A DNA stretch of 64,000 nt from a virus: IMG/VR virus record IMGVR_UViG_3300042301_004349, positions 107,172-171,171 of that record. The stretch is one strand, 5' to 3'. Made by a program: the position numbers and the translations under genes. The notes under the pieces are model-generated. The model was not told the origin of the DNA, ran no database searches, and was given only the letters and a program-made list of their open reading frames with translations. The number at the start of each line of letters is the position of its first letter. Position 1 is the stretch's first letter. Below are positions 3,468 through 64,000 of the stretch, in pieces.

Positions 3468-5464
3468 TATTTAATATAAATTGGTAATGGAATAGATGCT
3501 AAAGTATCTTTTAAGAATCCAGCTTCTTGTTGTTTTCTTTCAAGTTGACTCTTACGAGAAACTTCATTTAGCATCTCTTTTAATTCCAAAATTAAATCTT
3601 CTTTTTCTTTTCTAGCATCTGTAATCAATTCAGAACCATTTATTGGTCCTATACCTTGAATACTTGTAGAAGAATATTGAATACGAATATGTGCTTCAAC
3701 TTCCCTAGCTAATGCTAAAGTATATTTAAATATCCACATTCTACCAACAGTATTAATGTTCATATATACAGGATTTCTATAAGGAACATTCATTACATCA
3801 GTAACAACGTTCTTTCTTCTATCTCTTAATATAGAATTTTTATTACTCTTTTTAACATATTCAAAGAATAAGTTTAAATCGATAGAAGGTCTTGGGAATA
3901 TTCTTAATTTATTATTTTGTAATTCAAATGAATAACCAGCACGTCTGATAGTGTCATTTAATTCAATTGATTGAATCTTTTGTAAGTCAAAATTCATAGG
4001 CATTAGCAAAAAGTTAATACCAGGGGAGAATTGACCAAATCCAAATGTTTCAAGTAATGATTGAACACCAGTACCTGTGCCTGCATATGGGTCAAAATAT
4101 CTAGCGATTGCTGGAGGTTGTTCATGATATACTCTTCGAACCTCAATTGTATCTCCAAGTTCTAATGACTCTGATACAGCAGCCCATTCATTTAAATCAT
4201 AATCCTGTTCACCAGGAATTAATTTCAAACTACCTTTTTTAATATCATAATTTCCACCAACACTTGCTTCAGCTCCATAACCATCAGCAATAACTGATGT
4301 TATTGTTGTTAAGTTGTTGCTTAATACTTTATCATTAAATGTATCAACAGTTGTTTGAATATAAACTGTTGGGATAGTACCATTTGATCCTGTAAATCTT
4401 GCTCCATTACCTGCAATATTAGGTGTTGTAGTAAAGAAATAGATATGAGAATAACCTTCAGGTATACTATAATTAGATCCTGAAGTTACTCCTGTGAATT
4501 GAGCACTAGTTCCATTAATTCTAAAATTAGTAATATTAGAATATGATAATGAAGAAGAAATATTTAAAGTTGTTGCAGGAGAACCTGTAACAAATGTCAT
4601 AGGTGTACCAAATGAAGCAGAAGATACTGCAGTTAATTTAGCTGCTATATTTGCTGCTGTTAATGCTGCTGTACTTCCAGTTACAATATAAAAATTAGTA
4701 TCTGTATCAACCCCTGTATCATCTCCTACATAGAAATTAGTAATTGTATTGTTACTACCTGTAACAACAAATGATGTTGAACCTGATGTAATACTAACAC
4801 TAGCTGCATTCCATGATGAAGTAGCAGCATTATAATATGGTGTAACAACAGTTGCACCACCCGTTCTATTAAATTGATTATACACAAACTGGCTCAAATC
4901 CATTACAAGATTACCTGGTCCTGTGTATGTTGGATCAACAAATCCAGATCCCAAAGTAAATGAGTTGATATAGCTAAAGTCAGGCGCGATAAAATCGTTG
5001 ATAGAGGCGGAAATAACCCAGATCTCATTATCTACGATAGACGCTGAATAAGACTGATTAAAGTTTACTTCAGCCCAATTCGCTGGTCTTGGAGCAGACC
5101 AACTAACAGGAGAACCAATATCATCACTTAATATATGAGTATAACCTATATTTGAAAATGGAGAGGTTTCTGAGCCTTCCATGTTGATATAGTTGTCTCT
5201 AATTTTATATTGGTAAACTAAGTTACCATATGTAGTAACTGCTTCTTCAAAAGCAGCATATATAGTTAAATCGCTAATGTTTAATGTTGACAAACCTATA
5301 CCTGTACCTAAACGTTGAGCAACGTACTTAGCAGCATTCTTAGCATCACGTAAGAATTCAGGATCATCAGTATAATATTCAAAGGGGCAATTGCCCTTTA
5401 CATTTGAAAGATATGATACATCACCATTGTAATTATCATATAGTTGCATTAAGTTAATCGCCAT
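3467..5464 (-). CDS. Neck / head-tail adaptor (T4 gp13-like) with large internal insertion
   Basis: YVAQRLG...FEEAV N-terminus and WIFKYTLALAREV...INGSELI...PLPIYI C-terminus. Confidence 0.65.
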   Translation of the reverse strand: MAINLMQLYDNYNGDVSYLSNVKGNCPFEYYTDDPEFLRDAKNAAKYVAQRLGTGIGLSTLNISDLTIYAAFEEAVTTYGNLVYQYKIRDNYINMEGSETSPFSNIGYTHILSDDIGSPVSWSAPRPANWAEVNFNQSYSASIVDNEIWVISASINDFIAPDFSYINSFTLGSGFVDPTYTGPGNLVMDLSQFVYNQFNRTGGATVVTPYYNAATSSWNAASVSITSGSTSFVVTGSNNTITNFYVGDDTGVDTDTNFYIVTGSTAALTAANIAAKLTAVSSASFGTPMTFVTGSPATTLNISSSLSYSNITNFRINGTSAQFTGVTSGSNYSIPEGYSHIYFFTTTPNIAGNGARFTGSNGTIPTVYIQTTVDTFNDKVLSNNLTTITSVIADGYGAEASVGGNYDIKKGSLKLIPGEQDYDLNEWAAVSESLELGDTIEVRRVYHEQPPAIARYFDPYAGTGTGVQSLLETFGFGQFSPGINFLLMPMNFDLQKIQSIELNDTIRRAGYSFELQNNKLRIFPRPSIDLNLFFEYVKKSNKNSILRDRRKNVVTDVMNVPYRNPVYMNINTVGRMWIFKYTLALAREVEAHIRIQYSSTSIQGIGPINGSELITDARKEKEDLILELKEMLNEVSRKSQLERKQQEAGFLKDTLASIPLPIYIK

Positions 5465-5502
5465 TATTCACTAGTATTTGTCATGTATAAATATTGAATA
5501 TA

Positions 5503-6171
5503 TTATTTCCCATATTCATAATCCAATATCTTACCAACTAGGTCCGATCTATGGTTAGTTGCTAATTTAATCCACTGAATTTCTTCAATTTTTTTAGATA
5601 ATTCAATGACATACAACAATCCATTTAATTCACCTGTTGGATTTTTAATATCAGTTTGTTCATTATCCCCATTAATTACTATCTTACCATTTTTACCTAA
5701 ACGTGTTAATATAGCTAACATTTCACCTTTAGTTAGATTTTGAGCTTCTTCAACAATTAAAATATCATCAATTGTTTTACCACGAATGAATTGAACAGGT
5801 AATGCTTTAATTTTTTCTTCTTGTACTAACTTCGCAACCTCATTTTTATCAGAACAACATTTAGATAGGTTTTCTAACAACGCTTCCATATATGGATCAA
5901 ATTTTTCACTTAAGGCTCCTGGTAGGAATCCTAAACTTTTGCCTACTTCAACAGCAGCACGTGTATTGTATATACAATCTATTTGTTTTCTTTTAAGGAA
6001 ATCTAATGCTGCTTGTGCACATACTAATGATTTACCACTTCCTGCTCTACCTGTTATTATAACAATTTGGTTTTCTACTATTAATCGTTTTGCTTCTTTT
6101 TGTTCTTCATTTAATTGAACTGCGTTAATTGATTTAATTTCACTTTTGCGTTCGCGATTAGGTTCTCTCAT
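5503..6171 (-). CDS. phoH: PhoH-family ATPase
   Basis: GRAGSGKS Walker A, LGFLPG, FIRGKT, EEAQN, TRLG and GDNEQTD motifs; likely start is ATG 6171. Confidence 0.93.
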   Translation of the reverse strand: MREPNRERKSEIKSINAVQLNEEQKEAKRLIVENQIVIITGRAGSGKSLVCAQAALDFLKRKQIDCIYNTRAAVEVGKSLGFLPGALSEKFDPYMEALLENLSKCCSDKNEVAKLVQEEKIKALPVQFIRGKTIDDILIVEEAQNLTKGEMLAILTRLGKNGKIVINGDNEQTDIKNPTGELNGLLYVIELSKKIEEIQWIKLATNHRSDLVGKILDYEYGK

Positions 6172-10918: not shown

Positions 10919-11047
10919 TTATCTACCTTGTCCTCTATATTTTTTTGGTTTTTGTTCTGTTGGGCCATAACCTTTTTTTGCTTTACCCGTTGTTTTTTTA
11001 CCAAATGAAATCTTTTGAGAAGAAGATGATGATTTTGCCTTTGCCAT
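10919..11047 (-). CDS. Small basic 42-aa protein (not in ORF track)
   Basis: MAKAKSSSSSQKISFGKKTTGKAKKGYGPTEQKPKKYRGQGR; fills the gap and overlaps the upstream stop. Confidence 0.7.
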   Translation of the reverse strand: MAKAKSSSSSQKISFGKKTTGKAKKGYGPTEQKPKKYRGQGR

Positions 11048-12207
11048 TATTGGTTTAAGTTTTTAATTTTGTTATTAAGTTGATTAACCATTTCTGAGAT
11101 ATTAGCAACATTCTTTTGGGTTGCTTTCCAATATTTAATTCCTTCTTCCCCTTCACTTAATTCTTGTTTCATACGAGATGTATATTCAACAATACGATCA
11201 ATTTCAGCTAATTTACGTTTTACTTCACGGATAGCTTTATGTAATTGTTCAGATTTAGTTCTATATGTTACTTCTTTTTTGAACTTACCATAGGATACTT
11301 CATTAAGTACTCCTTGTTCAATAATATCGTTTAATTTCATTTCGTATATTTTTTTATAATCAAACATTTTTGAGTTTTTTGGTAGTGTTAAATCTGCTAC
11401 TGTCCAACCCATTTTCTTTAAAAATTTTACTGCTCTATTTTCACCTTTTTTCTTCCCAAAAGCACGAGGTGTAGCATAATTTTCACCTGATCCTGCACTA
11501 AAAGAAGCACCACTACCAGTTACATTTTCCTCGTTCATTATTTCACGAGCGTATGCTTTAATAGCTGATTTTAATGCTGCTCTTTTTTCTTCATCTAGTC
11601 CTTCTCTTCTTATTAAATTTATATTTTGTGTAAAAAGTTGGGTATGAGATTTAAATATATCAATAGTTGATTTCATTACTTTATAAAGTATTTCAACCCC
11701 TTTGATAATTGGTTGTATCCATCCTAAATAAGAACTCCAATCTGTAAAGGTAGAAATAAGCTTGTCTAACCCTGCTTCAGATATATATTTTTTAATAAAA
11801 TCTTCAATTGAAGTTGGTATAACACTACGCATCTTATCTATCACATATGTAGCAATAGATGCAATTCCTGTAGCTGCTAAAAGTTTCTTCCACCCTTCAA
11901 GACTAGTAATTCGAGCTACTATATCATTGATAGAAGTAACTAAATTATTTAATCCTTTTTCATTTAAAAAGTTTGTTAAGAGTCTTAATGTGCCTGTTCT
12001 AAATCTATACCAAATATCATCTGCAAAACGATGTAATATTCTTGAATTTTGGATTACCTGCCACATAACAGCAGCAGCATCTTTCCAATCATTAATTTTA
12101 GTAATTACATCATCATATTTGTCTTGAGCATATGCTTTCACACTATCCAAGAATGCTTCTTGTAATAGTTGTTCTTGTAAAAGTTTATTTTCTATGCTCA
12201 ATTCCAT
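11047..12207 (-). CDS. Hypothetical modular head-associated protein
   Basis: 386 aa with apparent three-module structure and an internal MKLNDIIE. Confidence 0.6.
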   Translation of the reverse strand: MELSIENKLLQEQLLQEAFLDSVKAYAQDKYDDVITKINDWKDAAAVMWQVIQNSRILHRFADDIWYRFRTGTLRLLTNFLNEKGLNNLVTSINDIVARITSLEGWKKLLAATGIASIATYVIDKMRSVIPTSIEDFIKKYISEAGLDKLISTFTDWSSYLGWIQPIIKGVEILYKVMKSTIDIFKSHTQLFTQNINLIRREGLDEEKRAALKSAIKAYAREIMNEENVTGSGASFSAGSGENYATPRAFGKKKGENRAVKFLKKMGWTVADLTLPKNSKMFDYKKIYEMKLNDIIEQGVLNEVSYGKFKKEVTYRTKSEQLHKAIREVKRKLAEIDRIVEYTSRMKQELSEGEEGIKYWKATQKNVANISEMVNQLNNKIKNLNQ

Positions 12208-37688: not shown

Positions 37689-40600
37689 TTATTCTGGGTT
37701 TAATTCTTCAGGGCCTCCACTACCACCTCCACTTGGTGGGGAACTTGGAGGAGATGAAGGTGGTGAACCACCTGGACTTCCCCCTGATCCTGATTGACAA
37801 GCTGAAGCATTACAATCTGCTAAAGCAGTCAAACCATCTAGAGGAATATAAGTACCATTTCCATCATTTAAACTATCAATACCTATAATCTGAGCACATG
37901 TTGTACCACCATCAATTACATAAGTAACATTAAATTGATTATATAAATTAGCATTAGTGCTTTTACCGATTACAGTACCTGATAAATCACATTTATCTAA
38001 AATATAATAAGTGTATGTTGGGCTCGGACTCGGAGACGGGCTTGGGCTAGGACTTGGACTTGGACTCGGAGATGGACTTGGACTCGGACTCGGAGACGGG
38101 CTTGGGCTAGGACTCGGAGATGGACTAGGGCTTGGAGAGGTTGTTAAATTACCTTCAGCTTTAATTAAATAATATCTACTTGAATTTGCTGTTAAACTAT
38201 ATAATGGCCAATAAGCACTTCCTGTTTCAATACTAGAAGTTGTATATGTTAATGAACCTGTAGTGAAAACAGACATTGTGTGAGATGCTGAGGTATAGTT
38301 ACCAACCCATCCACCATCAGCTGGTGGATATAAAGGTGCTTCAAATGAGTATGAAGTTCCATTATGTAGTTGAATATATTCTGCATCAGTTGTAAATAAT
38401 GTAGTTATATCTTGACCATTTCCTTTAACTTTAAGATTAGTACCGGCACCTCCAGATTCATCAACCAAAATAACAGCATTTAGTTCTTGGCAAACTGGGT
38501 CTGAATATCTATATTCACGAGCTCTTACATTTATACTACCAGTAATTGTACAACCATTAGCATCAGCAACAGTTATATTCCAAGTACCTCCATTCAATCC
38601 ATCATTTAAGTTAATAGTTGCTGGATTTGATGTTGTAGGACCTTGAGAGCGTGATGTTCCTCCTTTTTGTACCAAATAAGTGTAAGGAGAAGTTCCACCT
38701 GCAATTCCAATACTAACACTAGTATCACATTGATTATATGTCAAAGATGAAGTTATACTAGTAATACCTGGTGTAACAGTTATAGAAGCGCTTGCAGCAG
38801 ATGTACATCCTGTACTTAAATCAGTTGCTGTTAATGTATAAGTCCCTGTACTACCAGTAACTATACTTCCTGTAGCTCCTGTATTCCATAAATAACTAAA
38901 TCCAGCTCCACTACCTCCACTAACAGAAGCTGAAACTTGTCCATTACCACTACCACATGAACCATTAGTTGCTGTTAAACTAATAGATATTGAACTTACA
39001 CTACTAATTGTAGCACTACCGGTAGCAGTACAATTATTAGCATCTGTTACAGTAACATTATATGTTCCTGCAGGTAAACCTGTTGGATCTTCTGTTGTTC
39101 TAACAACTGTAGATCCTGTAACCCACGAATATGTGTATGGGGAAGTACCTCCAGAAACAGTTATACTAATAGATCCAACATCTTGACCTGGTTCAGGGCA
39201 ATCGGATGTTGTTGAATTTATGGTTACTGTAGGAGATGGTGTTTGTGTTATGGTAACTAAAGATGAAGTACTACAAATACCATCCTTAACAGTCACTGTA
39301 TAAGTAGCAGGGGATAAACTTGAAAATAAAGTATTTGAAGTAAACCCTTGCCAATTAGTACCTCCATTTATAGAAGCAGAATATGGAGCTCCATAAGTTG
39401 AAGAACCAGTAACTGCTATCTTTCCATCATTACTACCCCCACAAGTTATATTGGTTGGGTTTGTAGTAATAGTAAATACATCAGCTAATACAGTGAATGA
39501 AGAAGTAACAATTGTTCCTTCACTATCTCTAACATATAATACATTATTACCTATAGGAGCTGTTGTAGAAGCTGTTGGTTGGTACCATTCACAATTAGCT
39601 AAATTATTATAAGTTCCACCACCAACAGAAAATTGATAAGGAGGAATACCATAATTTATTGAAAAAGTAACAGCTGAAACACCCCCAACACAAACAATTG
39701 GTTGGAAGGATCTAGACATTTCTAAAGGTAACTTATAAAGTTCTAAATCAATACTGGCGGTATTACTTTTTAAACAAGTATTATCATTAACAGTATAATA
39801 TAATTTATAATTACCTGGTGTTACTCCTAAAGTTTCACATTCATCTACAAAAAGAGAACCTGTAATTAAAGTAACATCAGGAAAACTATACCCTGGGTAG
39901 GCATATGTAGCTACTGAACTAGTGGCAATTGCTGTAGAATTACAACTATCAATATAATCATTAGCTAGAATATCTAATTTTTTAGTACGTTGTACGTTTA
40001 ATATTCTAAAATAATCATTAATTGCATTGGGTGGAGTAGGTAAGAAACACTTATAATTTTGGTTTGTAATTATTACTAAACCTTGAGAATAAAATATGTT
40101 TCCTACATGAACTTTATTTTGTAATTCAGCAATATATCCTGGAGGAGCATAGTAACCTGGTTGTACATAATATCCTGTAAAAGAAATATCATAAATATTT
40201 CCATAACCATCATCTGCTAATTGGTAACTACCACTTGCAGTTAAAATAAAGTTATTAGGTTTTATCTGTTCACCGTAAATGTTTTGATTAAATGACATTA
40301 CCCTAATAATATCATTTGATGATGTTGGGAAACTATTTACAAATGATGGGTTCTCATTAAAATCAAAATAAGAACCAGTAGATATAGTACTAGACTCAGT
40401 CATGTAAGACTCATAATACATTGAATTAATCAATGAATGAGAATTAAGAATACTTGAAGAGTGGTATTGATAGTATAAGTGATTTATCTGACGATAAACC
40501 AAAGATTCATATTGGCCCTCAGTTATAGGGCCATTATCTAAATCTATACTACCTGTTATATTTTTACCTTTTAATATGGTAAAATAAGCACCATCTTGAG

Positions 40601-40691
40601 GGACACAAGCGAAATCAAGGTCCCAATTTTTATTAGCTGTATAGGGAACAACGAATACGTCTGGAGTACTCAGTTTTTTGAATGATGCCAT
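37689..40691 (-). CDS. Baseplate-anchored adhesin with SprB-like repeats and (SP)n linker
   Basis: GGTSPYTYSW...LPAGTYNVTVTDANNC repeats; N-terminus paralogous to the middle of 40712..41668. Confidence 0.7.
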   Translation of the reverse strand: MASFKKLSTPDVFVVPYTANKNWDLDFACVPQDGAYFTILKGKNITGSIDLDNGPITEGQYESLVYRQINHLYYQYHSSSILNSHSLINSMYYESYMTESSTISTGSYFDFNENPSFVNSFPTSSNDIIRVMSFNQNIYGEQIKPNNFILTASGSYQLADDGYGNIYDISFTGYYVQPGYYAPPGYIAELQNKVHVGNIFYSQGLVIITNQNYKCFLPTPPNAINDYFRILNVQRTKKLDILANDYIDSCNSTAIATSSVATYAYPGYSFPDVTLITGSLFVDECETLGVTPGNYKLYYTVNDNTCLKSNTASIDLELYKLPLEMSRSFQPIVCVGGVSAVTFSINYGIPPYQFSVGGGTYNNLANCEWYQPTASTTAPIGNNVLYVRDSEGTIVTSSFTVLADVFTITTNPTNITCGGSNDGKIAVTGSSTYGAPYSASINGGTNWQGFTSNTLFSSLSPATYTVTVKDGICSTSSLVTITQTPSPTVTINSTTSDCPEPGQDVGSISITVSGGTSPYTYSWVTGSTVVRTTEDPTGLPAGTYNVTVTDANNCTATGSATISSVSSISISLTATNGSCGSGNGQVSASVSGGSGAGFSYLWNTGATGSIVTGSTGTYTLTATDLSTGCTSAASASITVTPGITSITSSLTYNQCDTSVSIGIAGGTSPYTYLVQKGGTSRSQGPTTSNPATINLNDGLNGGTWNITVADANGCTITGSINVRAREYRYSDPVCQELNAVILVDESGGAGTNLKVKGNGQDITTLFTTDAEYIQLHNGTSYSFEAPLYPPADGGWVGNYTSASHTMSVFTTGSLTYTTSSIETGSAYWPLYSLTANSSRYYLIKAEGNLTTSPSPSPSPSPSPSPSPSPSPSPSPSPSPSPSPSPSPSPSPTYTYYILDKCDLSGTVIGKSTNANLYNQFNVTYVIDGGTTCAQIIGIDSLNDGNGTYIPLDGLTALADCNASACQSGSGGSPGGSPPSSPPSSPPSGGGSGGPEELNPE
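38019..38138 (-). repeat. Degenerate hexamer repeat encoding about 20 Ser-Pro units
   Basis: ggact/gggct/ggaga-type units on the + strand. Confidence 0.9.
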
Positions 40692-55980: not shown

Positions 55981-56003
55981 ATAATTGTATTATTTTGTAA
56001 ATA

Positions 56004-56531
56004 TTAGAAGCCTTTAGATTTGCTGATTTGGCTAGCAACGCTTTGTAATACTTGCTTCTTTTCTTCTGGAGTTTTTGCTTTTCTTAAGTCATTGATGATT
56101 GAAGCCGCTAATGTACCGCCTACACCAAGTAAAGTAGCTAAAATTGGAGCAGCATCAGCAAGTAAACTTTCGCTTACATCTTCGTTCTCATCAATTTTTT
56201 CTTTCTTATCTTCGTCTTTAACTTTCTTTTTCTCAGCTAATACAGCTTGTAATTCTTGACGAACCATTTCTTTTAATTCGTCCTTAGTCATTTTTTTCTT
56301 TTTTGTTTCCATTTCGCTTATTTTATTTATTGCGGGTGAATGATTTAATATTGAGTTAATTTTTTCTTCTTGTTCAGGATCGTTAACAGACAATTCAAAA
56401 TAATTTACAACAGTTCCATTTTGGAATGCAGATTTATTTTTTAAATCATTTGAGCTAACATTAACGTTTAATTTTTCTAAACGATTTAATAATGCTGCTT
56501 TATCTTCTGCTTTTATTTTATAAATTGCCAT
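56004..56531 (-). CDS. Hypothetical protein, putative head cargo (start corrected)
   Basis: Late motifs at 56538 and 56624; internal ELKEMVRQELQAVLAE. Confidence 0.55.
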   Translation of the reverse strand: MAIYKIKAEDKAALLNRLEKLNVNVSSNDLKNKSAFQNGTVVNYFELSVNDPEQEEKINSILNHSPAINKISEMETKKKKMTKDELKEMVRQELQAVLAEKKKVKDEDKKEKIDENEDVSESLLADAAPILATLLGVGGTLAASIINDLRKAKTPEEKKQVLQSVASQISKSKGF

Positions 56532-56622
56532 GCTACTAATAAATATAAATAATTTAAACAAAACATAGCTCCCCTTGGCCAAAACCGTTTGAGAGCCACT
56601 ACCCTACAACTATCCGTATATA

Positions 56623-56817
56623 CTATAAATATGTAGAAACCTTAGATGTCATATGAGTAGCCAAACGATAATGCGCAAATACCGCAAGTAAAAACAAAGC
56701 CAACATAAGATGAACATAATGACCATAAATTCCTACTAATAGGGTATGGGTGGCATAAACTAGCATATGCCCTGTTATCCAAAGCATAATAACCATTAAC
56801 AGATTAATTTTATTCAT
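56623..56817 (-). CDS. Small hydrophobic protein
   Basis: 64 aa with two hydrophobic segments. Confidence 0.4.
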   Translation of the reverse strand: MNKINLLMVIMLWITGHMLVYATHTLLVGIYGHYVHLMLALFLLAVFAHYRLATHMTSKVSTYL

Positions 56818-56819
56818 AA

Positions 56820-57050
56820 TTATTTATTTTCATTATTAAAACCCACACGTACGCGATGGGTGTGATTCGATTTAGAAATATACGATATGCTGGGTGAAGA
56901 TATATGACGATAATAAATTACATCATCCCACCCAGGATTATTAGATGATGGGATAAGATCGTAATGGGTAGCCTTCTGACACACGTACGGGTCACTTGAA
57001 TCGAGCTGGGTATAATGGTTAAGATCGTGATTGTGTGGGAGGCGTATCAT
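56820..57050 (-). CDS. Hypothetical protein
   Basis: 76 aa, tightly packed between neighbours. Confidence 0.45.
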   Translation of the reverse strand: MIRLPHNHDLNHYTQLDSSDPYVCQKATHYDLIPSSNNPGWDDVIYYRHISSPSISYISKSNHTHRVRVGFNNENK

Positions 57051-57052
57051 GG

Positions 57053-57349
57053 CTAATGGTTTACTTGTTCGTATGTTTTTTCGAATATCTCTTTATCCAC
57101 TAACCAACGTTCACCGGTGATACCAACACATATATATTCTCTACCAAATCCTTTACTTAAATGCTTTTGGTTCTCCAATGTGGAAACATAAGGTACTTTA
57201 ATTTCATTCTTACCCACAAATCCGGAAGTACTAATACTACCATCTTCGTTTACATCTTCATCATCATAGTATCTACTGATGAATCCATCTTCATCCCCTT
57301 CTTCAAATATCTTAGCTTCAACTGTTGCTGTTTTTCTATATGTTTTCAT
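57053..57349 (-). CDS. Widespread small phage protein (…STLE…GE.W…IFEKTYE family; start corrected)
   Basis: MKTYRKTATVEAK...GERWLVDKEIFEKTYE. Confidence 0.65.
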   Translation of the reverse strand: MKTYRKTATVEAKIFEEGDEDGFISRYYDDEDVNEDGSISTSGFVGKNEIKVPYVSTLENQKHLSKGFGREYICVGITGERWLVDKEIFEKTYEQVNH

Positions 57350-57631
57350 GTTGTAAATATAACGTATATACCTTGCCACTTGAAACTAGTTTTGTTCAAG
57401 ACCTCTTTTTGGACCTATGCAAACGTGGGACAAAGGGGTATTTTCGGAAATGGTATATGCGTATATACCCATCGGCCCATGTTTACGGTGTTTGTGTTGA
57501 GAATACCCATAGTTTTTTTGCATTGACCACGGCCCGTCGATTGACCGCAATTACCGTGGGAGCACTTCGCTATCAAACCGCTATTGTACCGCTATCGTCT
57601 CGATACCGTCTGTAACCTTTTTTCGGTCACA

Positions 57632-57663
57632 CGCCCGAGTGCCCGGTTGCCCGGGTGCCCGTT
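57632..57663. repeat. Four tandem 8-bp (t/c)GCCCGnn units
   Basis: cgcccgag tgcccggt tgcccggg tgcccgtt. Confidence 0.75.
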
Positions 57664-57835
57664 ATAGCTCGTTGGGTTGTTTCTTACGATGGCGTCTACC
57701 TATCATCCATGTTTTCACACACACGGTAAGCGGACCTACCAGAATCACTAATTCACTATCGTTTATTGCGATACCGAATACTAGACCCTTAATCAATTGC
57801 AATTCAATCCACCTGTTTCTAAATAATACGTTCAT
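57662..57835 (-). CDS. Small hydrophobic protein (not in ORF track)
   Basis: MNVLFRNRWIELQLIKGLVFGIAINDSELVILVGPLTVCVKTWMIGRRHRKKQPNEL. Confidence 0.55.
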   Translation of the reverse strand: MNVLFRNRWIELQLIKGLVFGIAINDSELVILVGPLTVCVKTWMIGRRHRKKQPNEL

Positions 57836-57894
57836 GTTATTATACTTTTAATGTAATGGTTAATTTATTATTTTATCTAGCTGATTATCTAGTT

Positions 57895-58086
57895 TTAATT
57901 GACTAGTTCATCCAATATCGCTTGCGCTTCAGATTTACTTACCCAACCATCACCGTCTACATCTACTAGATTGCCTACGTAATACATATCGTTCATGTTC
58001 ATTAGGCTATTCACATTCACCTTACTAGCAGCCTGCTCAATTGCGTCGGCTTGTCTTTCTAAATCTCTTAATCGTTTCGTTAACAT
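57895..58086 (-). CDS. Early protein with EF-hand-like loop
   Basis: DVDGDGWVSKSE; has its own promoter cassette. Confidence 0.6.
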   Translation of the reverse strand: MLTKRLRDLERQADAIEQAASKVNVNSLMNMNDMYYVGNLVDVDGDGWVSKSEAQAILDELVN

Positions 58087-58140
58087 ATCTTTTAATTTTA
58101 TTATGACGTGAATATACGCTGCGAGCTCTGACCATCCACG

Positions 58141-58359
58141 TTATAGTCGATCGTCGTTTCTGAAGTCGATCTCATCCTGCTTTCTCATTTGAGCAAGCTG
58201 ATAGTTAGTGAATTCGATGTATTTCTTACCTTCAAGAGCATCATTCACAGCCATCATTCTATTCTCACCCACCACATACAGTCCGTCTTTTCGTCTTTCT
58301 AAACGTAATGGACCACTTAAATCGAACTTTTCCCCGTCATTGAATTTTAACATGCTCAT
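58141..58359 (-). CDS. Early hypothetical protein
   Basis: Own promoter cassette. Confidence 0.65.
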   Translation of the reverse strand: MSMLKFNDGEKFDLSGPLRLERRKDGLYVVGENRMMAVNDALEGKKYIEFTNYQLAQMRKQDEIDFRNDDRL

Positions 58360-58415
58360 ATTGTTTAATTATTTATTACGACGTAAATATACATAGCCAA
58401 CCCTGACCAACCACG

Positions 58416-58634
58416 TTAGAACGTAGTTGGACGGTTTTTCTTAGGTGCCTCGTCATCGTAGGCTTTATTAGCTATCCATACAGCCAGGTAGATGAACATT
58501 ACTTGAACGGTGTAGCCTAACCAGTTGTATGTTTCAAACTTAAACGCGGCGCCGAATGTGACGATACCCTCTATAAACGCTAATACCACTAACCCAATAA
58601 TTGAATACCCAATACGATCTAATACTTGCTTCAT
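58416..58634 (-). CDS. Early membrane protein (2 TM)
   Basis: Two hydrophobic helices; own cassette. Confidence 0.65.
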   Translation of the reverse strand: MKQVLDRIGYSIIGLVVLAFIEGIVTFGAAFKFETYNWLGYTVQVMFIYLAVWIANKAYDDEAPKKNRPTTF

Positions 58635-58694
58635 AACTTTAATTTTTATTATATGGTGAATATATGAACTGTGTTTTGACCCATCACGCTTTAT

Positions 58695-58985
58695 TTAAGC
58701 GAAGTGAGGCCACATCATTATTGTTCCTGGATCGTTCCACTCGAAGCACCATCCGTTTTCATCAGCCCACTCGTTAATGGAGTTATGAACACCGAATTCG
58801 TACTGATCGTAATTTTCATTACCGTAATCGAATAGCTCCCATCCGTCAGCATTCGTTTCCCCGTTCTCACCAGACATCCAGATGCCGTCACCTAGGTCGT
58901 CATCGAATTCCTCTACCGGTCTCACGAATTCCACCCCCCACTTTTGTCTCAATTCAGACATCATTTTTTCTCTCTTCATAACCAT
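58695..58985 (-). CDS. Early acidic protein (start corrected)
   Basis: D/E/W-rich; the ORF-track extension is the translated promoter cassette. Confidence 0.65.
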   Translation of the reverse strand: MVMKREKMMSELRQKWGVEFVRPVEEFDDDLGDGIWMSGENGETNADGWELFDYGNENYDQYEFGVHNSINEWADENGWCFEWNDPGTIMMWPHFA

Positions 58986-59044
58986 TAATTTTAAGTACGA
59001 CGTAAATGTACGCGGCTGGCCTTGACCAGCCACGTTTCACTTAC

Positions 59045-59329
59045 TTACTTTGAAGTGTACTGAGCTTTAAGCTCATCAATTATCGGCTCCATGTACTCAT
59101 TAATCTTGTCGGCGTCAGCCTTAATTTCATCACTAGCCCAATTCAACACACATGTATCATGGTAACTGCGATCCCACTCGATCGTGTCATCATGACGCTT
59201 AGCGTCTGGCTTGATGAATGTAACTGATGCACCCATCCCATCATCGTGAACCTCATATCCTAATGACTCAGCGAACTGGTAGGCGGCTTTGTTAATCGCG
59301 CTTTTAATTTCTTTCTTATTCATAACCAT
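59045..59329 (-). CDS. Early hypothetical protein
   Basis: Own cassette. Confidence 0.65.
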   Translation of the reverse strand: MVMNKKEIKSAINKAAYQFAESLGYEVHDDGMGASVTFIKPDAKRHDDTIEWDRSYHDTCVLNWASDEIKADADKINEYMEPIIDELKAQYTSK

Positions 59330-59393
59330 TAATTTTTAGTACGTTGTAAAGATACGAACGGGGCTTTGCCCCGCCCCGTTTTACTTAATTTTT

Positions 59394-59669
59394 TTAATTT
59401 TCTTCCCAATACACATCCATAATTTCTTCTACTTCTTCATCTTCCATATTATAATCTTCATATAACATCTCTGCTATATAATCACTATCACCATAATCAT
59501 CACTCCATTCAACCCAATACTTATTAAATTCACTTAAAAATTCTTTAATTCCAACTTCTTCTTCACTTATATTATTACTAATCCACTCTCTTCTCTTCAC
59601 ATCCAATTCACCACCATCCCATTCTTCACTCATCAACACTTCTTTCATTACTCTCAAATCGATTTTCAT
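59394..59669 (-). CDS. Early, highly acidic protein with a nearly cytosine-free coding strand
   Basis: About 30/91 residues are D/E; only 2 G on the + strand; own cassette. Confidence 0.7.
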   Translation of the reverse strand: MKIDLRVMKEVLMSEEWDGGELDVKRREWISNNISEEEVGIKEFLSEFNKYWVEWSDDYGDSDYIAEMLYEDYNMEDEEVEEIMDVYWEEN

Positions 59670-59724
59670 AGCTTTTAATTTTTAGTACGTTGTAAATATA
59701 CGCTGCGAGCCCTGCCCATCCACG

Positions 59725-59937
59725 TTAAGCTAACTTGTAGCTCCAACGGATAAGGTCCTCGTCCTCTATCTCATCCTCAAACACCATCGCTTGTGAGCCT
59801 AGGATGTCTTGAAGCTGGTAAAGGTTAACGCGCTTCCAGAAGCCGAAGCGTAGGGCGAACCGGCCACCCACTTGATAAATTGAGAAATCACCGATTTCAG
59901 ATCGGATTAGTGCGAGAGTATCTGCGCTTATGTTCAT
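59725..59937 (-). CDS. Early hypothetical protein
   Basis: Own cassette. Confidence 0.65.
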   Translation of the reverse strand: MNISADTLALIRSEIGDFSIYQVGGRFALRFGFWKRVNLYQLQDILGSQAMVFEDEIEDEDLIRWSYKLA

Positions 59938-59999
59938 ACTTTTTAAATTTAATTACGTTATAAATATACGCACTGAACTCTGCCCCGCCACGTTCCGTC

Positions 60000-60269
60000 T
60001 TAAAAGAAGAACGCGTTCCAAGCGAACGGATTCAGTACCTTGTACCTTACACCTACGCCCGCTTGAGGCGCTTTAACGTAAGGTGATTGAACGGCTTCAA
60101 ACACGCAGTTGGTCTTACCCACACGGATCAATTTCCCTCGGCAAGTGGGTGAGTGGTTCTCGGATGTCTCTTTACCGATCACTGCCTTCAGATCTGAGAT
60201 CTGATCGTTCGGGCCGATGCTTTTTCTCGCGGCTATTAATTTGTTTGAAACGTAAATACCAATGCTCAT
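60000..60269 (-). CDS. Early hypothetical protein
   Basis: Own cassette. Confidence 0.6.
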   Translation of the reverse strand: MSIGIYVSNKLIAARKSIGPNDQISDLKAVIGKETSENHSPTCRGKLIRVGKTNCVFEAVQSPYVKAPQAGVGVRYKVLNPFAWNAFFF

Positions 60270-60323
60270 AACTTTTAATTTAATTGTGATGTAAATGTAC
60301 GAACGGGGTCTTGCCCCGCCTCG

Positions 60324-60479
60324 TTAGAACTGGATGTAATCAATTGCTTTTTCACCTATTGACTTACCGTCTCTAGTAATTTCGTAATTAGGATCCATTC
60401 CTGAGATCATGATGTGAGCAATTAAGTCACCAATGCAAGTGAACTCAGCTCCGTAATATTCACATTTTAAACTGTACAT
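60324..60479 (-). CDS. Early 51-aa protein (not in ORF track)
   Basis: MYSLKCEYYGAEFTCIGDLIAHIMISGMDPNYEITRDGKSIGEKAIDYIQF, between two cassettes. Confidence 0.7.
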   Translation of the reverse strand: MYSLKCEYYGAEFTCIGDLIAHIMISGMDPNYEITRDGKSIGEKAIDYIQF

Positions 60480-60544
60480 AATATTAATTTTTAAGTGCAA
60501 CGTAAATATACGCTACTCACTTTGACCATCCACGTACGAACAGA

Positions 60545-60576
60545 AAGAGGGAGCCGGGTAGACACCCAGCTCCTCT
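60545..60576 (-). terminator. Terminator-like hairpin
   Basis: AGAGGAGCTGGGT/ACCCGGCTCCCTCT followed by TTC. Confidence 0.6.
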
Positions 60577-60607
60577 AACCATTAAAAATTAAAAGTATGA
60601 ACCGTTT

Positions 60608-61000
60608 TTAAGCCACGTCGGCTATTATCGTTAATGGGGTTAATGTACGGGGCTCGTAGCCTACCTTATAACAATCCCATTCAAATTTATCGTTAAAAAC
60701 ATAAACGTAATCTACTCCATAATCGGAAGCAACCGTCTCTAGTTCGTTAATCTTCACATCCCTAGACTCAGTCATCCATTTAGGTTCTTTCTTATCGCGA
60801 TGGTAAGCAACACTTTCATCTGTTGTTTTACCCAGTGCGCTCAAATCACCCAACTCTAACAACTCAGCTACTGTAGCGGGTGTGTTGTAGTGTTCCACTA
60901 GTAGCTGCCCTACGTGATCTGGGTATCCATCCCAGTGACAGTAGATTATATTAGCAATTTCACCGTTTACTTGAGTTCCAATCAATGATCTTGTAGCCAT
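60608..61000 (-). CDS. Widespread phage protein (YCHWDGYP motif)
   Basis: MATRSLIG...IYCHWDGYP...ELGDLSAL. Confidence 0.7.
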   Translation of the reverse strand: MATRSLIGTQVNGEIANIIYCHWDGYPDHVGQLLVEHYNTPATVAELLELGDLSALGKTTDESVAYHRDKKEPKWMTESRDVKINELETVASDYGVDYVYVFNDKFEWDCYKVGYEPRTLTPLTIIADVA

Positions 61001-61055
61001 AACTTTAATTTTAATTTATGATGTAAACATACGCTAAAAAACTATGCCACCCAAC

Positions 61056-61310
61056 CTATGCCTCAGCAACAGGTTTCACACCACCCAACATGTTAAGGAC
61101 ATCATCCTCACTCAATCCCTCAACACCGTTTTCCTCATCTTTTCTCATGGAAACAGCCATCAAAGCCAATGTGATCACTTCAGCCAGATCAGGATTGTCG
61201 TTAATAACATTTGCAAACAAATTCATTAACTCTTGACCCGAGCCATCACATTCTACGTGGATCTGGTCCTCATCTGTTAATTCTACTCTAAAAAACGGTT
61301 TCTTGTTCAT
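61056..61310 (-). CDS. Early acidic hypothetical protein
   Basis: Own cassette. Confidence 0.6.
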   Translation of the reverse strand: MNKKPFFRVELTDEDQIHVECDGSGQELMNLFANVINDNPDLAEVITLALMAVSMRKDEENGVEGLSEDDVLNMLGGVKPVAEA

Positions 61311-61381
61311 AACAATTAATTTTTTAAATTTTATTTATGTGGGAAAAATACGAAAACTTACTCTGACCTCCAAATTTATTT

Positions 61382-61597
61382 TTAATAAAACACCCTTTGA
61401 TGTACCCCATGGAGTGAACTCACCCTCAGCTCACGCATCCAGCTGAACTGGTCTGGTTGGCTCTGGGGCTTCACCGTACGCTTCGGTTGCTCAACACCGT
61501 ACTCTAAATTGATGGGTTCACCCTCCGTACGTACTCCGAACAAAAACACCGTAAAAAATTGCAATAAGTTCACTTGAAAACCAAATAGTTTGATCAT
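61382..61597 (-). CDS. Early hypothetical protein
   Basis: Own cassette. Confidence 0.6.
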   Translation of the reverse strand: MIKLFGFQVNLLQFFTVFLFGVRTEGEPINLEYGVEQPKRTVKPQSQPDQFSWMRELRVSSLHGVHQRVFY

Positions 61598-61630
61598 AAT
61601 TTAATGTTTTAATGATGTAAATGTAATAAC

Positions 61631-61768
61631 CTACCTTTGCCAAACCGCTCTACGATCCCCTATTATACAGACCTGGCGTTTAGGTGCTTTAAAGCGTCTA
61701 ATCTTTCGTTCCACTGAACATGAAACACAGAGCGAGATTAATACAACCGCTACGATAAACTTTTTCAT
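61631..61768 (-). CDS. Small putative lipoprotein (start corrected)
   Basis: MKKFIVAVVLISLCVSC signal/lipobox-like N-terminus. Confidence 0.5.
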   Translation of the reverse strand: MKKFIVAVVLISLCVSCSVERKIRRFKAPKRQVCIIGDRRAVWQR

Positions 61769-61786
61769 TGTAATAGTATTGATGTT

Positions 61787-61832
61787 AAAAAAATAAAGCC
61801 CGTGGGGTGGGTGAAACCCACCCTTCACGGAC
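61787..61832 (-). terminator. Rho-independent terminator
   Basis: CCGTG..GGGTGGG-TTTCA-CCCACCC.CACGG followed by a T-run. Confidence 0.75.
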
Positions 61833-61834
61833 AA

Positions 61835-62086
61835 TTAAGCAGCCACCTGTGAACTGATCGGTGATGCTTTCTTAGGAGCACCACGCTTGATCACCTCACC
61901 AGCTGCGATCTTCGCTGCGCGCTCAGCTAACTTTCTTTGACGTGCTGATTCACCATTTGCAGGACGACCCCTACCGATTGATCCACCCGCGGCTGCTCTA
62001 GCTGCTCTGGCTGCTAGACGTGCTTGACGAGCTGATGTGTTAGATACTGGGCGACCTCTTTGTGCTGATTTTACTTCTGTTGACAT
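61835..62086 (-). CDS. Small Ala/Arg-rich AT-hook-like DNA-binding protein
   Basis: QRGRP, GRGRP and KRGAP within an internally duplicated unit. Confidence 0.65.
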   Translation of the reverse strand: MSTEVKSAQRGRPVSNTSARQARLAARAARAAAGGSIGRGRPANGESARQRKLAERAAKIAAGEVIKRGAPKKASPISSQVAA

Positions 62087-62154
62087 AACCTTGATTTTGT
62101 TTTTTATTTAATTTTATATTTTAAAGATAAGACGTTTTGTTCTGACCACCACCT

Positions 62155-62454
62155 TTATTGTTCGACGGGCTCACTAATTGCTTTTAGTGTCTCGTAAAAC
62201 TCATAGGTGAAGATCGTTCTGGGTTCACCAAAAATGATCTCGTGATCAATCCGCTCGTAACGATAGTGGTTATTAGTTCGGGTTAAAAGGATCTTATCGA
62301 TTGCCTTTAAGCACATTTCTTCACCGTAGAAAAAATCATCACTGTCAGCCATCAAATTAAACTCCTGGCCACCTTTTGCTTTCCAATATGGGGTCTCTTC
62401 TGAACCGTAGTTTTCCCAGACCTGAGCCGTAATTCTAATCAATGTGTTTTTCAT
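62155..62454 (-). CDS. Early hypothetical protein
   Basis: ENYG...YWKAKGG motif; own cassette. Confidence 0.65.
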   Translation of the reverse strand: MKNTLIRITAQVWENYGSEETPYWKAKGGQEFNLMADSDDFFYGEEMCLKAIDKILLTRTNNHYRYERIDHEIIFGEPRTIFTYEFYETLKAISEPVEQ

Positions 62455-62505
62455 AACCTTTAATTATAATGTAAATATCGGAACAAAACCCTGCCAGACC
62501 AACTA

Positions 62506-62661
62506 TTACTTCACAAAGCGGCCGTTGCGAACATCTCGCTTACGAACAACCCCACGACGGTCTCTCATCTCAATGATGTAACGGTTCTTAAAAAGGTTGT
62601 ACAGAAACCCAGCACCCAACACCACCAATGCTGATGTACCCAAAATTTGAAATAACTCCAT
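62506..62661 (-). CDS. Small TM protein with basic tail (start corrected)
   Basis: MELFQILGTSALVVLGAGFLY... Confidence 0.55.
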   Translation of the reverse strand: MELFQILGTSALVVLGAGFLYNLFKNRYIIEMRDRRGVVRKRDVRNGRFVK

Positions 62662-62683
62662 TTGTTTTTTGTTTAAGTTTAAA

Positions 62684-62869
62684 TTATTCATTTACATACT
62701 GCTCATACATTTCAAGAAGATCTTCTCCGTCTATTTCAAACGGATCTTCATCTTCAAAAAAACCATGAAACCCATTGTCTCTAACGAGGAAAACATCTTC
62801 CCCGATCTGTGTGATGTCTGCACCCGCTTTGGTAAGACTCACTAACGCATTTTCAATTTCCATTTTCAT
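62684..62869 (-). CDS. Early acidic protein (start corrected)
   Basis: Own cassette. Confidence 0.6.
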   Translation of the reverse strand: MKMEIENALVSLTKAGADITQIGEDVFLVRDNGFHGFFEDEDPFEIDGEDLLEMYEQYVNE

Positions 62870-62918
62870 AACCTTTAAGTACGATATAAATGTATGAACA
62901 AAACGCTGCCCAACCAAA

Positions 62919-63131
62919 CTACTTAGGTGAAAAAACAGCTTGCATTGCGTCTAGTCCGTAACGAACTCCCGCGTGAAAAATAAACAACAAATCAGTGTCA
63001 CTAGTGATTTCAATAGCGATCCTTTGCTGACCTGTTTCTTCATCTAGGTCTCCTATGAGGGTGACCTTTTCCTTCAATTCCTCTTTTAAATAAGCGAGGC
63101 GCTCTGGGCGCATAAAGATTTCTGCTTTCAT
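62919..63131 (-). CDS. Early hypothetical protein
   Basis: 70 aa. Confidence 0.6.
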   Translation of the reverse strand: MKAEIFMRPERLAYLKEELKEKVTLIGDLDEETGQQRIAIEITSDTDLLFIFHAGVRYGLDAMQAVFSPK

Positions 63132-63143
63132 AACTATTAATTT

Positions 63144-63305
63144 TTATTTCAATTCCATTAATTTCTTCATCATACCCAATTCAATGATTACATCACCATT
63201 CTTCTCTAAATTCTCTTTTAATAGGGGAAGGAGATGAACTACATTAGGGTGGTTACTTATCCCTAATCCCTTAATGAATTCACTTAACAACATCTTCTCT
63301 TTCAT
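63144..63305 (-). CDS. Early hypothetical protein with C-poor coding strand (start corrected)
   Basis: Own cassette; starts MKEKMLLSEF. Confidence 0.6.
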   Translation of the reverse strand: MKEKMLLSEFIKGLGISNHPNVVHLLPLLKENLEKNGDVIIELGMMKKLMELK

Positions 63306-63362
63306 AACTATTAATTTTAAATGTGATGTAAATATACGAACAGAACTATGACCGAACAAAAC

Positions 63363-63998
63363 TTATCGCCTAGTTGCTTTAGGGCGCCCGCGACGGCCGC
63401 CAGTGCGTGCCTTCACCAGTGCTTTTTGAGCCGCGCGGGAGGAAATCATTTCACTTGTGAGTGAAGGTCGTCCGCGCTTGCCGCCTGTAGGCTTTGATGT
63501 TTTTGATGTTACACCAGAAGCTGGGCGTCCTCTCTTACCTCCACTACGCTCTCCGCGAGCTACTTTTTCTGCTTCGCGAGCTAACCTTACCTCTGGATCA
63601 AGTGCTGGACGTCCTCTACGGCCACCCTCAACCTTCTCCTTCTTGGGTTTCATCCCACGCGCGAGCGTAGCTGCCTCACGTTCATCCGAACGATTCATCA
63701 TGCGGAGTGTCTTCTTATGTTTGATCACGGACGGGTGAATGATCACCTGATCCAAACCAAAACAACGACTCGCACCTGAAGCATCACGTACCTCATATCC
63801 ACCCTCAGGCCATCCTGGCTCACCGGCTTCACGTTGTCTGATGAGTGAAAAAAATAAACGCCCCTCATAAAAGTACGGTGCGGGTAAAACCCTATCGTGT
63901 GGTTTAAAAACAGATAACTCAGGTTCAATATCGGCGTAGCGCTTCACAGTTCCACACTGTTCACCACCAACCATAAATGGGGTTTCTACTAGTCTCAT
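63363..63998 (-). CDS. Multi-AT-hook protein
   Basis: Four (R/K)RGRP motifs in a basic C-terminal half. Confidence 0.7.
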   Translation of the reverse strand: MRLVETPFMVGGEQCGTVKRYADIEPELSVFKPHDRVLPAPYFYEGRLFFSLIRQREAGEPGWPEGGYEVRDASGASRCFGLDQVIIHPSVIKHKKTLRMMNRSDEREAATLARGMKPKKEKVEGGRRGRPALDPEVRLAREAEKVARGERSGGKRGRPASGVTSKTSKPTGGKRGRPSLTSEMISSRAAQKALVKARTGGRRGRPKATRR

Positions 63999-64000
63999 AT

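Follow-up and report, generated by a model that had tools for sequence, protein, structure and literature searches.

The gene examined here lies on the minus strand at 59394-59669 of the 64,000-nt stretch we analyzed (the window), which forms the last 64 kb of a 171,171-bp virus record with terminal repeats, IMGVR_UViG_3300042301_004349. It encodes a small acidic protein of 91 residues, 30 of them Asp or Glu, and its coding strand is composed of A111 T82 G81 C2. The only G residues on the plus (template) strand within the gene are at 59473 and 59661, leaving a G-free run of 187 nt at 59474-59660. All six serines are encoded by AGT, leucine by TTA or TTG and the three arginines by AGA, every Asp, Asn, Tyr and Phe codon ends in T, and Pro, Thr, Gln, His and Cys are absent, so that the protein uses only 15 amino acids. 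The two C residues are in Ile3 (ATC) and Ala66 (GCA), and one ATCGAT is present at codons 3-4. The positions of the G residues, the codon choices and the ATCGAT had been set out in a preliminary description made from the sequence alone, and our recount confirmed all of them.

The template tract with a single G, at 59473, spans 59379-59660 on the plus strand, from codon 4 through the stop codon and the 15-nt 3' UTR up to a terminator stem. The terminator-like hairpin, at 59357-59380 on the minus strand, has an 8-bp stem (AACGGGGC...GCCCCGTT), is also the stem-loop of the next cassette, and is the first place where C reappears on the coding strand; three terminator-like hits were found here, against 0.1 expected. 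Upstream of the gene, at 59670-59724 on the minus strand, is a G+C-rich segment followed by the conserved motif TTTACAACGTACTAAAA (59680-59696) and a short A-rich leader. This element contains C, including 2-3 in the 5' leader, and so is not purged. The motif occurs in two exact copies (59334-59350 and 59680-59696) and five further copies within 2 mismatches in the gene array at 58.3-62.9 kb. The promoter in the preliminary description, which it called early, rests only on this repeated element: no sigma-70-type match was found in 59250-59800, and promoter function and early timing are inferred by analogy with the PeSL (promoter-early stem-loop) cassettes of T4-type phages (PMC2839356). It is possible that the element is a Bacteroidota-type promoter.

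The wider genome encodes the major capsid protein gp23, portal gp20 and a T4-type terminase, as well as a 1000-aa protein with an SprB repeat (37689-40691), probably a tail fibre or adhesin, which fits a Bacteroidota host. Fifteen of the DNA sequencing runs that hold half or more of the sampled words of the stretch are lake, freshwater or aquatic metagenomes. We read this genome as that of an uncultured T4-like phage of freshwater Bacteroidota.

Cytosine depletion in the gene and its relatives

In the whole genome the two longest G-free runs, 187 and 94 nt, are both in this gene, the next longest being 62 nt, and no other region has 6 or fewer of any base per 200 nt (mean G 29.3, sd 6.5, minimum 1 here). 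With the protein held fixed and codons drawn from the usage of the genome, 15.3 C are expected, and P(C<=2) = 1.7e-7. Residues that cannot be encoded without C (P, T, Q, H, A) make up 1.1% of the protein, against 21.2 +/- 5.0% in 207 genome ORFs, where the next lowest value is 8.2%. Both synonymous and amino acid choices are thus constrained at the nucleotide level, as the preliminary description had argued, and acidity does not explain the composition. The neighboring cassettes have ordinary C on the same strand (48 of 285 and 49 of 213 nt), and the cassette array at 56000-64000 has 36-42% G+C, against 27-35% in the rest of the window. The cassettes next to the C-free gene are therefore richer in C than the genome average, which may mean a different origin.

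Searches by megablast and tblastn with the region and the protein against GenBank phages found no match, and a search for related loci among viral and metagenome contigs found no confirmed relatives, but protein searches did. Five close homologues (66-96% identity) from a clustered protein database have 1, 2, 2, 3 and 5 C in 276-306 nt, and only 6 of 75 variable alignment columns involve C. A profile search of 1.84 billion representative proteins found more distant members, at 35-50% identity to the window protein, with 0 C in 315 nt (locus L007), 2 in 303 (L010), 0 in 276 (L011) and 7 in 300 (L014). Altogether, 10 distinct small homologues at 35-96% identity carry 0-7 C; ordinary C content in homologues had been named beforehand as the result that would overturn the claim, and it was not what we found. 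A 338-nt contig from an RNA library also covers the whole gene, and none of its 22 listed differences puts a C on the coding strand, although such contigs show only that the gene occurs in RNA libraries, without level, start or end and with DNA carry-over possible.

Substitution patterns pointed in the same direction. Between the window gene and its 66%-identical homologue at locus L002, dS is 0.66-0.92, yet the synonymous differences are A/G 12, A/T 2 and C/T 0, whereas the adjacent ordinary gene, compared between the window and locus L005 of another relative, shows C/T 10 and A/G 4 (Fisher P = 2e-4). Between the same two genomes, the window and L005, the neighbor gene at 59045-59329 has dS 0.41 and dN 0, while the C-free gene has dS 0.10-0.125 and dN 0.04, suggesting either that synonymous sites of the C-free gene are strongly constrained or that the cassette was exchanged recently. 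The gene sits beside different neighbors and different upstream elements in these loci, so the trait travels with the gene. In a 164-kb relative (locus L001) the gene is duplicated: a truncated first copy (5001-5150) runs into a repeat of roughly 300 nt (4690-4990 = 5150-5450) that also precedes the full copy (5451-5732), which looks like a recombination scar between repeated intergenic elements (4690-5460). In the same locus, an unexplained G-rich, C-free stretch of 115 nt (4583-4698) overlaps the end of an otherwise ordinary 106-aa gene and the spacer after it.

Several lines of evidence indicate that this is a real gene. dN/dS is 0.24-0.43, an alignment of 12 sequences shows invariant W52, G60-D61-S62, M84 and Y87, and the AlphaFold2 model is a confident five-helix bundle (mean pLDDT 92.6). 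No relative of the protein was found in Pfam or PHROGs, by a PDB sequence profile search (E > 0.6), by Foldseek against PDB and BFVD (E > 1), or in the ESM Atlas searched by features and by shape (TM up to 0.58, on unrelated rows). One distant homologue was informative. P0014 (locus L016, 4001-5479) is a 492-aa K/E/D-rich protein encoded between the portal-side genes and the gp21-type prohead protease in the head module of another T4-like phage; it carries the domain at residues 269-353 (hhalign 96%, 36% identity over 84 columns) with ordinary T, A, H and Q and with 18 C in 285 nt, so the predicted fold does not demand the reduced alphabet. A search for longer proteins with the domain found only P0014, and the head-module ORF of the window (11047-12207) does not carry it. 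The position of P0014 suggests a prohead core or internal protein, which hints that the domain may act at the very start of infection.

In the relatives, C-free tracts extend over other, unrelated small ORFs: four genes in L014 (3604-5124), three in L007 and two in L011, comprising at least seven further gene families, with C reappearing only in terminator hairpins after the stop codon. The same database and structure searches gave nothing usable for the seven other C-free ORFs. In L014 the C-free units have their own repeated upstream element, which occurs nowhere else in 8.3 kb. We pooled 13 C-free genes and compared them with 54 ordinary small neighbors from the same loci. C content is 0.6% against 13.7%, two-fold NNY codons are T 424 : C 4 against 796 : 356 (P = 2e-50), Thr is 0.5% against 5.3%, Ala is 0.4% against 5.7%, and net charge per 100 residues is -16.5 against -4.5. 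The lost C is made up equally by A and by T, with a rise in Glu and Asp.

A predicted 7-deazaguanine pathway in the phage genome

Outside the window, at about 44.9-54.3 kb of the genome (locus L019, 903-10312), a predicted 7-deazaguanine DNA-modification cluster lies beside the family-B DNA polymerase. It encodes a dUTPase/dCTP-deaminase-like protein, a phosphoribosyltransferase-like protein, FolE, QueE, an NAD-dependent epimerase/dehydratase, a long QueC (291 aa), a DpdA3 homologue (261 aa, phrog_19058) and QueD. The DpdA3 homologue is 33-36% identical (E about 1e-31) to CP220 gp056 and to the annotated DNA guanine transglycosylase of Flavobacterium phage immuto, and has over 1300 close relatives in metagenomes. 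It has no hit to Pfam TGT itself, but the study that defines the DpdA3 subfamily likewise found DpdA3 only as a distant TGT/DpdA homologue by HHpred (10.1101/2023.04.13.536721). That study reports complete replacement of dG in the DpdA3 phages CP220, phiST and immuto, in immuto by fdPreQ1. Immuto, like our genome, encodes DpdA3 with FolE, QueD, QueE, QueC and a phosphoribosyltransferase-like protein. Neither QueF nor a formyltransferase of the DpdN type of immuto was found in our genome, so the derivative may differ. It seems probable from gene content that G in this phage is fully modified; if so, a G-free template strand is one with no modified base at all.

We scanned whole genomes of other phages and viruses with 7-deazaguanine genes for base-free windows. 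Immuto, a cultured phage whose G is 100% replaced, has exactly one tract, gp143 (NC_055915.1, 68330-68686; locus L038, 4331-4687), which encodes an unrelated acidic hypothetical protein of 118 aa with 5 C in 357 nt. CP220, Cellulophaga phiSM, Chryseobacterium MA9V-3 (which has a weak DpdA3-like match) and Halovirus HVTV-1 have none; the longest base-free run in CP220, a 111-nt G-free run on the plus strand (NC_027997.1, 83687-83797), is well short of a whole gene. The two genomes that do have such a tract are related to each other, so the association is suggestive but confined to one clade and not independent.

What might keep cytosine out

The analysis shows, in our judgment with high confidence, that this is a real accessory cassette gene in which purifying selection acting on the nucleic acid keeps C out of the coding strand, and so G out of the transcribed strand, at all three codon positions and strongly enough to shrink the protein alphabet. 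The cause of this selection, like the activity of the promoter element, the modification of guanine in this phage and any role of the acidic product, is inferred at most. Our preferred but tentative reading, which we hold at somewhat less than even odds, is that the step being avoided is the addition of C opposite a template G by RNA polymerase. In this view, the polymerase would read the whole ORF without meeting one modified (or attacked) guanine and without needing CTP, and the transcript would stay makeable at full speed on freshly injected hypermodified DNA, under damage to the modified base on the template, or when CTP is scarce or poisoned. This covers two readings that sequence cannot separate, the modified guanine of the phage itself, whether it slows the polymerase or is a target of attack, and dependence on CTP through scarcity or chain terminators; nor can sequence alone separate a hazard on template G from a hazard on C in the finished RNA. 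Weighing against it, the four 7-deazaguanine viruses named above lack such tracts, CP220 despite complete replacement, the leader and upstream element of this gene contain C, and neighboring cassettes with the same upstream element have 17-23% C in an array richer in G+C than the rest of the genome, indicating that ordinary genes of this presumed early array tolerate template G. Nothing in our data shows that modified G slows the host polymerase or that CTP is limiting.

The interpretation offered in the preliminary description was only partly supported. It proposed that the gene is built to stay expressible under a base-specific attack, such as CTP depletion or viperin-like ddhCTP chain termination, a C-containing-motif mRNA interferase, cytosine deamination or guanine modification of the template, and that it may encode the inhibitor of that defense. 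Guanine modification of the template gains a concrete basis in the DpdA3 homologue and the FolE/QueD/QueE/QueC genes. However, no C- or G-directed defense was identified, literature searches on escape from ddhCTP by phages found nothing relevant, and, although an inhibitory product is not excluded, nothing here supports it; the number of unrelated C-free families and the ordinary C of neighboring cassettes count against its simplest form.

Among the alternatives, the one that survives best, although we consider it unlikely, is a hazard on the finished RNA: a ribonuclease or RNA-modifying activity at C in single-stranded RNA, either a host abortive-infection nuclease or a shut-off or early-to-middle switch enzyme of the phage itself, in the way T4 RegB cuts GGAG, would destroy ordinary messages while C-free messages persist. 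The exclusion is indeed per C, C is tolerated only inside base-paired terminator stems, several unrelated gene families share the trait, which fits a class of messages defined by stability, and the C-free units of L014 have their own upstream element. No candidate nuclease was identified, however, no C-specific bacterial or phage mRNA endonuclease that cuts at every C is known to us, and the 5' leader keeps 2-3 C.

Escape from the termination factor Rho is less likely still. Rho loads on unstructured, C-rich nascent RNA through pockets that bind pyrimidine-C steps, so that a C-free message offers no loading site, which matters if transcription outruns translation, and purine bias of coding strands driven by Rho avoidance has been reported for Bacilli (Nat Microbiol 2026, PMC13323073). 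The coding strand here is 70% purine, coding strands throughout the genome have G > C, and residual C lie after a purine more often than expected (19 RC against 3 YC events, P = 0.03), an excess that is partly forced by the genetic code. But Rho needs several YC steps over about 80 nt, so single ACN or GCN codons should be harmless to a purely pyrimidine-C-directed reader such as an E. coli-type Rho, yet Thr and Ala are depleted tenfold. U is raised rather than depleted (34.2% against 28.3% in neighbors), which differs from the Bacillus pattern, the transcripts are only about 330 nt with their own terminators, and neighbors of the same size with the same upstream element are not purged. Single cassettes rather than the genome are affected.

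We think it even less likely that selection is simply for a structure-free message, favoring fast translation initiation in hosts that lack Shine-Dalgarno pairing or in cold water. Predicted folding energies are indeed weak, at -7.9 kcal/mol per 100 nt for this gene and -9.3 on average for the 13 C-free genes, against -23.3 for the window neighbors and -18.6 for A+T-rich neighbors, but weak structure does not require near-total exclusion of one base or the loss of five amino acids, lowering G, or G+C in general, would serve as well, and only the first tens of nucleotides matter for initiation. Mutation, by strand-specific C-to-T deamination of an exposed non-template strand or R-loop-linked damage in a heavily transcribed unit, would fit the T-ending synonymous sites and the GC skew of 0.95 on that strand, which would favor R-loops, but is very unlikely because the trait follows the gene through at least four contexts whose neighbors have ordinary C, neighbors with the same upstream element are unaffected, A/G transitions run normally, A rises as much as T, and the protein is conserved with a confident predicted fold. 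Depletion of tRNAs was rejected because NNT and NNC codons are mostly read by the same tRNAs, yet NNC is excluded; no tRNA genes are in the window. Avoidance of restriction palindromes, which the preliminary description had raised as an alternative, can be all but dismissed, since, although a strand without C cannot carry a palindromic site containing G or C and the phage appears to invest heavily in anti-restriction DNA modification, one ATCGAT remains and is conserved in 5 of 6 close homologues, the exclusion covers positions that form no plausible site, and one site-free 276-bp stretch does not protect a 171-kb genome.

Full-text literature searches found no published description of natural cytosine-free genes, and no link between DNA modification and strand-specific base avoidance is known to be published. 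Genes restricted to three nucleotides and held there through deep divergence show that something in the infected cell acts on single C (or template G) positions of particular transcripts. They offer a simple, sequence-only signature for finding a hidden class of presumed early phage genes, tentatively linked to complete guanine hypermodification, and natural examples of proteins, folded by prediction, built from a reduced alphabet; gp143 of immuto, which grows on Flavobacterium sp. LMO8, is a ready cultured model. A bolder and, we think, improbable possibility is that three-letter genes are a deliberate viral coding strategy, in which phages that replace every guanine with a bulky 7-deazaguanine encode a small set of first-wave proteins on templates with no modified base and no need for CTP, so that these can still be made when the host attacks the modified base or poisons or starves C incorporation. 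The acidic products would then be the counter-measures, hypermodified DNA would have an undescribed transcription cost or vulnerability, and base-free ORFs could be used to find new counter-defense genes.

Comparison with known systems

In its working the gene resembles the synthetic G-less or C-less cassettes used for in vitro transcription, which can be transcribed with three NTPs because one base is missing from the template strand, but it is natural, encodes a protein with a confident predicted fold, and is maintained by selection across a gene family. Repeats of intense nucleotide skew (GRINS, PMC8256042) are reportedly tied to repeated sequence undergoing gene conversion, whereas this gene is single-copy with only one tract in the genome, and the trait spans unrelated genes. 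Its size, acidity (33% D+E) and position among presumed early accessory genes recall small anti-defense proteins such as Ocr, ArdA, Arn and Ugi, but the searches described above gave no sequence or fold similarity to a known mimic, and no evidence of any target was found.

The closest match in organization is the PeSL cassettes of phages RB49 and phi1 (PMC2839356), small non-essential ORFs each bracketed by a repeated promoter-like element and a stem-loop, which lie in a hyperplastic region and are swapped between related phages. The gene sits in such an array, with the repeated motif, the hairpin and neighbors that differ between relatives, but without a sigma-70-type consensus, as the host is probably Bacteroidota, and PeSL cassettes are not known to have a base-free composition. 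Also encoded near the C-free gene, both in the window (61835-62086) and in a relative (L002, 3-290), are small basic proteins with repeated RGRP (AT-hook-like) motifs.
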